A DNA stretch of 64,000 bases from Escherichia coli O157:H7. GTDB taxonomy: Bacteria > Pseudomonadota > Gammaproteobacteria > Enterobacterales > Enterobacteriaceae. Made by a program: the position numbers. This document shows, one piece after another, positions 39,001 through 42,000 of the stretch. Numbering within the stretch: position 1 is the first letter of the stretch; the number at the start of each line of letters is the position of its first letter. The stretch is taken from the NCBI RefSeq assembly GCF_013167455.1, contig NZ_CP038328.1; one strand, written 5' to 3'.

Positions 39001-42000
39001 GGAGAATATCCCTGTGTTTGTTCAGTTCCCGTAGCGCAGCACAGACTCGCTCCCACTTCTGAACATTACTTTTCGCCCGGCGCAGCTCGCGGTTAGCCAC
39101 ATGCAGCGATGGTAGAATCAGGTCATCTGCTTTCGCTTCAGTGAACGATTGCTGCAACTTCACAATGTCCTCCACCGCTTCTGTTTTAATTTCTTCCTGT
39201 GCAGCCGTTTCCTGGACTGGTAACGCAACACCAGCTGGCTGAGGAAGGGCTTTACCCTCCGTTTCAGCTACGGATGCTGCTTTCGGCTCTGCCGGTAAAT
39301 CAACGCCCGGTATGCAGTAACGAAATTTACCATCCTGATTCACGCGAATCAGACACCCTTTGCTGATTGCCATTGCCAGCGATGAATTCGCCCGGCGGGA
39401 GGTAATTCCGAACATCAATGCCAGTTCATCCGCCGTTTGTGGGCCATGTTGTTCAATCGCCTCTGTCAGCATTTGCGCCGTCACTTTCGGTACCGGTGAC
39501 ACCGGTTCACTTTCACCAGCCTGAGTCAGCCACCATATCGCCCCCTTGTTATCCGCTTCTCCACGGCGTTTCAGTTTCCACAGTTCGTTGACAGCCTCTT
39601 CACGACTAATTCCAAGGCGAGCTGCCACCACATGTGAAGAGGCTCTTTTCAGTGCTTTCAGTGCGTCAGATACGGTTTCCATTAAAATTTCCTCCGACAA
39701 AATCGTTTCTCAGATTCAAACAAAACCAGCCGCCTTCCGGCGCTCGTATTCCTGTTTCAGTAATTCAATTGGCGTTGGCCCTTGCGGGCACTTCGGCGAT
39801 GCGAGTTGTCTCCGGATCGGGGGAATACTCATCCCGTTACCAACTTGCTTTGCCCATTTCGTCAGTTGCCGTTCTGCAAGTCGTTTTAACTCACCTTCCG
39901 TCATCTGCCGCTCAATCCCTCTGTCACGCATCTCGAGGCAAATGTGGTACAGCACCGGCTGTGGCCACGGGTATTTATCACTCCCGTCGTACCGCCAGGA
40001 TTCATTCCTCCAGCGACGGTACTCCTCCATCACGGCATCCACCGTCAGGCCAAATGGATTTGCCCCGCTCTCCGAAATCAACGCCACAAACTCAGCCAGG
40101 TCCGGAGGCCACGTTTCACCCGCCCGGCAGCGGTCCATGCACTGACGGCAGACCTGCCGGATTTGCTGTTCAGTCATCGCGCCAATCTGAGCAATCCAGA
40201 GCTTCGACGGCGCAGCCCCGTTCTTCTGGGTCCAGCGGTTCGAATACACCTCCCCCATAAGTTCCCACAGCTTCCAGGCCGTTTCCGTTGCTGATAAATC
40301 CGTTTTCACGTTCCCACTGTTCACGTGCTGCCCGAATTTCCTGAACTGCCCGTGATGCGGTGCCACCTGGTGCTGCATGGCTTACCCCCTTGCTGACTGG
40401 TTTTACCTGTGCCCTGACGTGCTGCACGTGACGGGCAAATTTCTGCTCCCACTGAACCTGCGTGAAAACCTTCCCCTCCGCCATCCAGTAATCCCGGAAT
40501 GCGGCAAGCTCAGCAGGTGTAAACTCAGGCTCAGGCAGAGCCATACCCCACAATGCAGCCCGCTGTCGAAAATCCAGCGACGGCCGCCAGACACCAGTCA
40601 TCGGAAATTTCCCGATCGGTTCGCTCAGGCCATCCGGGTATTCAGGTTCTGCTGTCTGCAACGGCGCGCCATTCGACTCACTGGCTGGAGCACTCTCGCG
40701 CATGCGCGCGTTATGTGTGGGGTTTAATTCTTTATCTGTATCTGTATCTGTCGTGACTTGTCGTGACATATGCGTGACGCGTCGTGACTCATCGTGACAA
40801 TCAGTGTTCTGCTCCCGCAGTCTTTCCCGCTCCCGCTGCGCTCTCTTGCGCTCTGCCGGGGATTTTGCGGTTTGCGAAACATTACCGTTATCCTCCTTCA
40901 TCACCTGGCGTTTTTCCCATCCGGAAATAAGATCGCCATCCAGAACTCGCCCCTGCATTGCATGCAAAATTGAATCAATCACGTCTTCCGTCACATCAAG
41001 CGCACTTGCTAAATCTTCCGTCGTGACATCAATGTGACCACGTAGTGACTCGCCGTGACATTTCGTGACATTTCGTGACGCACTCACCAGAAGGTGGATA
41101 TACACCGCCATCACTGTTGCGATTGGCTGTCCTGAGACCCTGGCAATGGTTCGCCATTTGGGATCATTTGGCATGTCATGCCACAATCTGAGCCAGGCAT
41201 TAGCCATACTCACCTCATCTGATACCGAACTTTACCCTCGAACATCCGGAAGAAATCCGGCATGAATATTGTTGGTCAATGCACGACAACAGCATTACCA
41301 GGCTGACCCCCACTGTTAGTCAGGGTGCCCCAGGCGATCGCCGCTGCGACAAAATCATCCACATCTTTCACCAGCCGATCCCTCCGTTCGACGATCTCAC
41401 GGTAATATTCAGAGCTGTGACTGCGCATACGGGCCACCAGCAGAGGCGGCATTGCCTTTTCGATCGCCGGTAACAGAGCCTGCATTTTTTCAACAGCATC
41501 AGGGGTGTCTTTATCCAGCCAACGGAAAATTTTCTGGGTATTACGAGCCAGGGCTTCCGGATGGCTGTCGTCGTACAGTTCCGGGAACGTCATCCCCAGT
41601 TCGAAATAAGTCCGGGCTATTTCAGCTGCAGGAACTTTCTCACCATCAGGATATGCCCAGGCATTCATCGCCATGCGGATGTGCTCATGTTTGATTTTCA
41701 TGAATCATTTGCCTCTTGATGCTTCGGGTATGATCGTTTTCGTCATTTGGTTGCTTCATCGACATATTCTGCGAATAACATGACGAGCGTCGTAAGTATG
41801 TCCAATCAACATCAGGACGAAGTTCTTCACACAGGACACCACCTTTTGTTGCTCGTTCAATCGCAGGACATCTCTCAGCAGGCAACTGACGTACACCTTT
41901 GATCCATTGATTTACGCTTGGAGGAGATACACCTAAAAGCCTAGCCATTGCTGATTGCCCACCGACAACAGCACAAGCTCGTTTGAATGAATAGTTATCT

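Follow-up and report, generated by a model that had tools for sequence, protein, structure and literature searches.

Two helically spaced repeat arrays within a phage initiator gene as a probable prophage replication origin in Escherichia coli O157:H7

Here, we describe two arrays of one short direct repeat that lie inside a phage replication initiator gene of Escherichia coli O157:H7, within a 64,000-nucleotide stretch of contig NZ_CP038328.1 (assembly GCF_013167455.1; hereafter the window), and we propose that they belong to the replication origin of a lambdoid prophage. The initiator gene occupies 40170-41213 on the minus strand and encodes 347 amino acids from a GTG start (345 from the RefSeq start at 41207), with the start of a lambda-P-like helicase loader gene (39716-40177, minus strand) overlapping its stop codon. 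One array, which we call the linker array (40750-40799, minus strand), has five GTCACG(A) cores spaced 10-11 base pairs (bp) apart in codons 139-155 of the 347, while the second array (41021-41080, minus strand) has six GTCAC(G) cores at 10-11 bp spacing and covers codons 45-64, which encode a surface loop of the N-terminal domain. At the end of the linker array lies a tract that is A-rich on the coding strand and T-rich on the plus strand (40716-40751, minus strand). We propose the linker array as the origin-core iterons, the A-rich tract as the DNA-unwinding element and the second array as an auxiliary initiator-binding array; 40716-40799 would then be the putative, and we think probable, origin core.

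The repeats and their surroundings in the initiator gene

Read on the plus strand, the GTGAC cores of the linker array begin at 40753, 40763, 40774, 40784 and 40794 (spacings of 10, 11, 10 and 10 bp) and those of the second array at 41023, 41034, 41045, 41055, 41065 and 41075 (spacings of 11, 11, 10, 10 and 10 bp), with 229 bp, start to start, between the last core of the second array and the first of the linker array. The extended form CGTGAC is present in 9 of the 11 copies, and the mean spacing is ~10.3 bp. On the coding (minus) strand the unit is thus GTCACG(A), which is asymmetric and keeps a single orientation throughout both arrays. A preliminary description of this DNA had placed two clusters inside a replication gene, and this is borne out: both lie within the open reading frame at 40170-41213 and are non-random at the DNA level. 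Its counts of five and six copies also stand, although only four of the five linker copies fit the YCGTGAC form it gave, the spacing is 10-11 bp instead of ~11 bp, and the second cluster extends over 41021-41080, not 41029-41094.

The departure from chance is evident from several directions. Nowhere else in the 64 kb, on either strand, are there at least four copies of GTGAC or GTCAC per 70 bp, and the three-copy pattern CGTGAC-N4-5-CGTGAC-N4-5-CGTGAC has four matches in the window, every one within the two clusters, against none in 100 dinucleotide-preserving shuffles. Tandem Repeats Finder reports period-10 arrays at 40749-40798 and 41054-41079. When synonymous codons were resampled with the protein held fixed, the six copies had P < 5e-5 and the five copies P = 1e-4. 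The copies occupy reading frames 0, 1 and 2, and encode V-T, x-S-R or S/C/G-H; because all three frames are used, this is a DNA repeat imposed on the protein rather than the reverse. An origin as a peptide repeat was rejected on the same ground, together with a period that is not a multiple of 3. A third array, sought by analogy with oriR of phage SPP1, was not found in the window, which contains the whole prophage. A solitary copy, CGTCACATCAA (40989-40999), stands 33 bp outside the second array and differs by one mismatch from the iteron unit CGTGACATCAA at 41022-41032 (repeat family D6). The mismatch falls on the central base (GTCAC for GTGAC on the plus strand), so that its 5-bp core is the reverse complement of the array core.

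The G+C minimum of the initiator gene coincides with the A-rich tract (35% at 40720-40759), which holds (TCTGTA)x3.8 at 40729-40751 (Tandem Repeats Finder), encoding T-D-T-D-T-D. On the far side of the tract is a GC-rich palindrome, CGCGCATGCGCGCG (40697-40710), which varies among relatives with a common C-terminal module and could be either a structural origin element or a stop for antisense transcription. On the plus strand, CGCGCATGCGCGCG followed by TTTAATTCTT (40694-40722) scores as intrinsic-terminator-like, antisense to the initiator gene and at the edge of the A/T-rich tract. There was no Rfam match across 39500-42300, and a consensus scan for an internal promoter between the arrays found none.

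Conservation and apparent exchange of the arrays

Close relatives of the initiator were collected from 79 viral contigs (87-100% protein identity), giving 46 distinct sequences for the analysis of column variation. The second array has six copies in 78 of the 79 and five in the remaining one, and the linker array has three to six. Within the second array, 1 of 30 core columns is variable as against 8 of 33 spacer columns and 90 of 337 columns elsewhere in the gene, and the contrast between the cores and all other columns (1/30 versus 98/370) is significant (Fisher P = 0.003). Relatives at 89-93% identity keep all eleven cores while spacers and peptides change (CHDESRRVTHMSRQVTT versus CHDESRICHDMSRRVTT); in those at 89% nucleotide identity the 11-bp spacing moves within the linker array, altering the peptide and leaving the cores intact.

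Searching phage genomes by tblastn with the first 162 residues of the protein recovered more distant members: Escherichia phages Tritos and Evi (88% identity), Aeromonas phage pAEv1818 (67%), the D3-like Pseudomonas phage phi1 (62%), uncultured phages (44%), Ralstonia phage Firinga (35%) and cyanophages (31-35%). Tritos and Evi, phi1, pAEv1818 and Firinga each have two arrays, at codons ~43-55 and ~130-145, with their copies 10-11 bp apart. E. coli and the phages phi1 (Pseudomonas) and pAEv1818 (Aeromonas) all use the motif GTCACG, Firinga uses GCAACG, and the uncultured phage MW202785 has CGAACGC. When viral contigs were then scanned with these distant members as seeds, 75 distinct genes were recovered, in which an array was scored as a chain of at least three identical 5-mers at 10-11 bp, with same-size tiles from the flanks as controls. 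An array is present in the linker region of 64 of the 75, compared with 2 of 1834 control tiles (0.1%), and 18 of the 75 have one in the loop region as well. The motifs in these contigs include GTCAC(G), GCAACG, GTGACG, AACGCCA and GTAACG, and in every two-array gene both arrays carry the identical motif. The positions of the arrays are constant in lineages with only 30-45% protein identity and unlike motifs. Some relatives (L111, L113-L115, L123 and L130) have loop insertions of 38-41 residues with up to eight GTGAC copies and no clear linker array by this criterion; in these, the linker array may have drifted too far for exact 5-mers to match, or its role may have passed to the loop array.

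When the family is aligned on the end of the linker array, AT content over the next 30-60 nucleotides (nt) is 17-19 percentage points above the gene mean, with 22.8 A versus 4.9 T per 50 nt on the coding strand. Nothing comparable follows the second (loop) array across the family.

The second array has also left its mark on protein length. It encodes residues 43-63, which in an AlphaFold2 model form a loop or hairpin, modelled at lower confidence, that connects helix 29-45 to helix 63-70. The 51 genes with a linker array only nearly always have a loop of 15 residues here, and the 22 genes with a loop array have one of 14, 21, 28, 35, 38 or 41 residues; these lengths mostly follow 7-residue steps, that is 21 nt, or two repeats. 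The loop in the window is 7 residues (KCHGESL) longer than that of Tritos, and in the linker both the window and Tritos have 7 residues (HMSRQVT in the window) that are absent from phi1 and pAEv1818. Across eight two-array classes the mean internal array spacing is 10.36 bp and the arrays lie 215-313 bp apart, centre to centre, with an inter-array phase near zero at a period of 10.4 bp (R = 0.93), although only ~4 of these lineages are independent, because 21-nt expansions keep register automatically, and the absolute phase moves ~0.25 turn per 0.1 bp of assumed pitch. Such a shared lattice suggests, without proving it, that the arrays cooperate physically through looping or wrapping.

Other parts of the replication module vary independently of the motif. 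A DnaT-like C-terminal domain is present in the window and pAEv1818, no Pfam domain is found there in Tritos, phi1 or Firinga, and the downstream partner gene among relatives is P-like, DnaC-like, DnaB-like or toprim/AAA (primase-helicase-like). By these comparisons the motif tracks the N-terminal domain, regardless of C-terminal domain, partner or immunity genes.

The same is seen among E. coli prophages. The C-terminal half of the gene (40170 to ~40750), starting at the peptide K-E-L-N-P-T-H-N, occurs at 85-93% nucleotide identity in many of them, fused elsewhere to at least two other N-terminal domains, namely the DUF1376 domain of Rac YdaU and a third type in strain 55989. The loader gene is likewise common to those prophages at 85-93% nucleotide identity, and in one O157:H7 genome up to six places match the C-terminal half. 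Homology breaks at query positions 564-580 (window 40733-40749), at the A-rich tract and abutting the linker array. The window module and the Rac type both contain the tract itself, GATACAGATACAGAT..AAAGAATTAAACCCCACACATA, of which the 55989 type retains just the 3' part (AAACCCCACACATAACGC). Among the three types that share the C-terminal module, GTCACG arrays are found only with the N-terminal type of the window, and the other two have repeats of their own a short way upstream of the junction: in the 55989 type, some four copies of ACACCCAAAAACGG(A) (spacings of ~20-90 bp, gene nt 290-480), and in the Rac type, where the repeats may mark oriJ, three copies of TGTTCAAACAAA at 33 bp with an inverted copy (gene nt 300-450). 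This is what one would expect if each N-terminal domain travelled together with its iterons as a single specificity cassette, and such exchange appears to have taken place. With this shared half joined to other N-terminal domains, several resident prophages would have the loader-side module in common and differ in origin specificity.

Taken at the level of sequence comparison, both arrays behave as conserved elements under selection as DNA, whose motif changes together with the N-terminal domain of the same gene.

A chimeric initiator and its proposed action

What kind of protein does this gene encode? The preliminary description called it O-like, a label that has to be withdrawn. At E <= 0.01, Pfam finds nothing in the whole protein besides the DnaT DNA-binding domain (PF17948, residues 203-269, E = 4.5e-17; 40407-40607 on the minus strand, part of the shared C-terminal module), with no Phage_rep_O, and the N-terminal 158 residues have no O-family match even at E <= 10. 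Homology to lambda O was rejected on both counts. With 91.8 bits for the NCBIfam DnaT equivalog, whose cut-off is 201, the domain is DnaT-like rather than DnaT itself. Profile searches gave no match to Rep_3 or P4 alpha, and the protein does not qualify as a Rep_3-type initiator. In PHROGs it falls among families for replication initiation and is weakly linked to 'DnaD-like helicase loader' and 'replisome organizer'. The loader is more readily named, being Pfam PF06992 Phage_lambda_P (E = 1.6e-16), RefSeq 'replication protein P' and phrog_109, P-like helicase loader.

The AlphaFold2 model of residues 1-158, built from 81 diverse relatives, has a predicted local distance difference test score above 90 over most of residues 11-100. 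In it the N-terminal domain (residues ~1-135) has a winged-helix fold whose best structural match, on which it superposes with 7-8% identity, is the N-terminal domain of DnaD, of the DnaD / DnaB(Bsu) family; a sequence search of solved structures with the family profile returned nothing relevant. The N-terminal region also has a conserved basic W-x-x-RQ-P-KRE / R-rich helix. As modelled, the initiator is therefore a chimera, in which a basic helix and linker join a DnaD-like N-terminal domain to a DnaT-like C-terminal domain.

In light of this architecture, how might the arrays work? From the sequence relationships above we infer that both are binding sites of the initiator encoded by the same gene, and the steps suggested here for opening, for loader recruitment and for the second array have the same source. 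We consider it quite likely that this is an initiator-bound, two-array origin in which the linker array and the A-rich tract form the core and the second array is auxiliary. The initiator would be made from a pR-like operon and its N-terminal domain (~135 residues) would bind the GTCACG cores; because the cores recur once per helical turn, bound initiators would be aligned on one face of the DNA. At the core (40750-40799 with 40716-40751), the oligomerised initiator would distort the DNA and open the tract, after which the DnaT-like C-terminal domain and the lambda-P-like loader would recruit host DnaB. The second array, 229 bp (~22 turns) away on the same lattice, would most likely cooperate by looping or wrapping and so raise local occupancy, and could simultaneously be a roadblock or titration site that feeds back on initiator expression.

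Several observations weigh against this proposal. In DnaD, the N-terminal domain is an oligomerisation scaffold and not a sequence-specific DNA reader, and to our knowledge DnaD does not recognise iterons, so that the best structural match of our putative DNA-binding domain is to a domain that oligomerises. Helices 63-70 and 74-84 and the wing, searched for residues that determine specificity, show no simple residue-to-motif covariation, and this holds for the putative recognition helix. By the strict criterion 11 of the 75 relatives have no array, and the second array is absent from 57 of the 75, so it is not essential to the family. The limits given above on the lattice result count here too, and the prophage may be replication-defective. 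Finally, we found no literature on binding, unwinding or replication by this initiator or its close relatives.

If the second array is not there to help the origin fire, it might be there to restrain it. The linker array and A-rich tract would then be the whole origin, and the second array a control element that either blocks RNA polymerase in the 5' part of its own gene (autoregulation) or titrates or handcuffs the initiator in the manner of the incA control iterons of plasmid P1. We regard this as a possibility, well short of an expectation. It accords with the lack of an AT-rich tract beside the second array, with the three quarters of the family that lack this array and keep the linker array, and with its place early in the transcript from the pR-like promoter; in SPP1, moreover, the replisome organiser G38P, when bound at its second site oriR, has been proposed to stall forks, not to fire (PMC6316719). 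The shared lattice, on the other hand, is easier to explain by physical cooperation than by an independent roadblock, and negative copy control is less obviously needed by a lytic phage origin. Such a control role is compatible with the initiator-bound two-array origin that we favour.

It is improbable, in our view, that the repeats are bound by some other protein unrelated to the initiator, whether a host factor or the prophage regulators RacR, YdaS or YdaT. The connection between initiator and repeats comes from sequence, and the N-terminal domain of DnaD does not belong to the classical sequence readers, both of which leave some room for another binder. Against this, the motif changes with the N-terminal domain and stays constant when immunity genes, C-terminal domain and host genus change, and it is this tracking of the N-terminal domain instead of immunity genes or host that makes another binder unlikely. 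If the binder were a host factor (though not if it were a phage regulator), one would, in addition, expect neither unlike motifs in phages of related hosts nor a motif shared by E. coli, Pseudomonas and Aeromonas. Least credible of all is that the arrays have no function and arose by replication slippage where the loop and linker could tolerate it, as the 21-nt steps in copy number and the lower model confidence of the encoded loops might suggest, given that cores are conserved while spacers drift, that arrays occupy the same two positions in lineages at 30-45% protein identity with different motifs, that both arrays of each gene carry the identical motif, that the control rate is 0.1%, and that codon choice maximises the motif.

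A broader version of our proposal is that these genes represent a widespread family of phage initiators with a phase-locked, two-part origin in their own coding sequence. All would have the linker array and unwinding element and a sub-lineage the loop array, the loop growing in 7-residue steps with its sequence set by the protein's own binding site, the integral-turn spacing being kept by bridging initiators, and the second array being needed in cis for efficient firing. We advance this only tentatively and would not presently bet on it.

Known systems and the prophage context

An iteron origin embedded in an initiator gene is of a textbook kind. Lambda ori has a single iteron cluster, of iterons that are ~19 bp long, have dyad symmetry and are more widely spaced, and it has a palindrome beyond its AT-rich tract. 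The preliminary description had read the lambda arrangement into both clusters; the linker cluster and its A/T-rich tract do have the anatomy of an embedded origin, whereas the second cluster, set within the codons of the DNA-binding domain, has no lambda counterpart, and the iterons themselves are of another type, being asymmetric cores of 6-7 bp, one per helical turn. The initiator, too, differs from O in having no sequence homology to it and in its DnaT-like C-terminal domain. The likenesses to lambda are an origin set midway along the initiator gene, where a linker joins the DNA-binding and partner-binding halves, the apparent exchange of N-terminal domain and iterons between prophages as one module, and iterons followed by an AT-rich tract, transcription from pR and a P-type loader gene immediately downstream (PMC7466680). 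In O of Shiga toxin (Stx) phages, which has six iterons, extra iterons add 13 amino acids (PMC7466680), and here the protein is similarly lengthened, by 7 amino acids per two repeats.

The oriL of Bacillus phage SPP1, which lies inside gene 38 (encoding G38P) and has been reconstituted experimentally in vitro (PMC5737612, PMC6316719), likewise has short direct repeats about one helical turn apart in the linker that follows the N-terminal domain, next to an AT-rich unwinding element (PMC5737612, PMC6316719). In the sequence of SPP1 gene 38, codons ~119-137 contain GAAACGACA / AAAAGACAC repeats 11-12 bp apart, and an AT-rich run comes directly after them. The order of iterons, A-rich tract and palindrome is common to the window, to SPP1 oriL (PMC5737612) and to lambda ori (iterons and AT tract, PMC7466680). 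G38P, too, has a second binding region, oriR, which is intergenic and ~13 kb away, whereas in the window 229 bp separate the two arrays, within a single gene and on one helical lattice. In place of G39P/G40P, the initiator here has a lambda-P-like loader as its partner. Homology to G38P lies below every curated threshold: TIGR01714 covers its whole model in a weak match (E = 0.0065, 16.7 bits, cut-off 49.8), PF09681 (Phage_rep_org_N) matches one of eight relatives (E = 0.017), phrog_4880 'replisome organizer' is weak (E = 3e-4), and hhalign of the family profile against G38P gives a probability of 0.3%.

Two arrays of one short repeat served by one initiator, of which one array opens and the other acts remotely by looping or handcuffing, are familiar from satellite phage P4 (ori and crr) and from the iteron plasmids P1 (incC and incA) and R6K. 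The window likewise has two separate arrays of the same short direct repeat and one proposed initiator. The initiators are unrelated, and in those systems the second locus lies outside the initiator coding sequence.

What sets this example apart is an initiator other than O that brings SPP1-type, one-turn mini-iterons into a Gram-negative lambdoid prophage with a lambda-P-like loader, together with a conserved second array within the codons of the putative DNA-binding domain and a quantised growth of the loop it encodes. In a search confined to open-access papers, we found no description of this origin type. The initiator/motif pairs (GTCACG, GCAACG, GTGACG and others) form a natural series in which to follow the evolution of initiator specificity, and they offer a case of a putative DNA-binding site constraining both the sequence and the length of its own binding protein. 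Synonymous recoding could abolish the second array, which makes its role open to direct test.

Our findings also locate a probable replication origin for an effector-carrying lambdoid prophage (espN and nleL) of E. coli O157:H7, whose 'O/P' module is really a chimera, made up of a putative origin binder of DnaD-like type, a DnaT-like domain and a loader resembling lambda P. Cassette exchange would explain how several prophages of a single O157 genome can have the C-terminal and loader module in common and yet differ in origin specificity.

The region of the window matches E. coli strains TR01 and NE122 at 100%, and we used the NE122 annotation. The window holds a complete lambdoid prophage integrated beside potC. 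From its left end, the order is IS2 and type III effector genes (espN and nleL), with a gogB fragment, then tail, head and lysis genes, and then the early region, which ends with excisionase and integrase (44529-45647). The prophage also has the toxin gene hokD, a TerB-family pseudogene and a truncated gene for a 3'-5' exonuclease; together with the left-end features these lie in window 1-9000 and 36000-36200. The prophage may therefore be partly decayed.

A predicted pR-like sigma-70 promoter (42036-42065, minus strand; TTGACA-18-TAATAT, 10/12 matches) heads a minus-strand operon of a cro-like YdaS-family gene, YdaT (CII-like), the initiator, the loader, DUF1627 and further genes, and transcription from it would cross both arrays. 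The immunity region (41276-42609) is of Rac type, with a divergent RacR repressor, a YdaS-like Cro and the CII-like YdaT, while close relatives with the same initiator and iterons have different repressor and cro genes, one of them beside a RelB/RelE pair.

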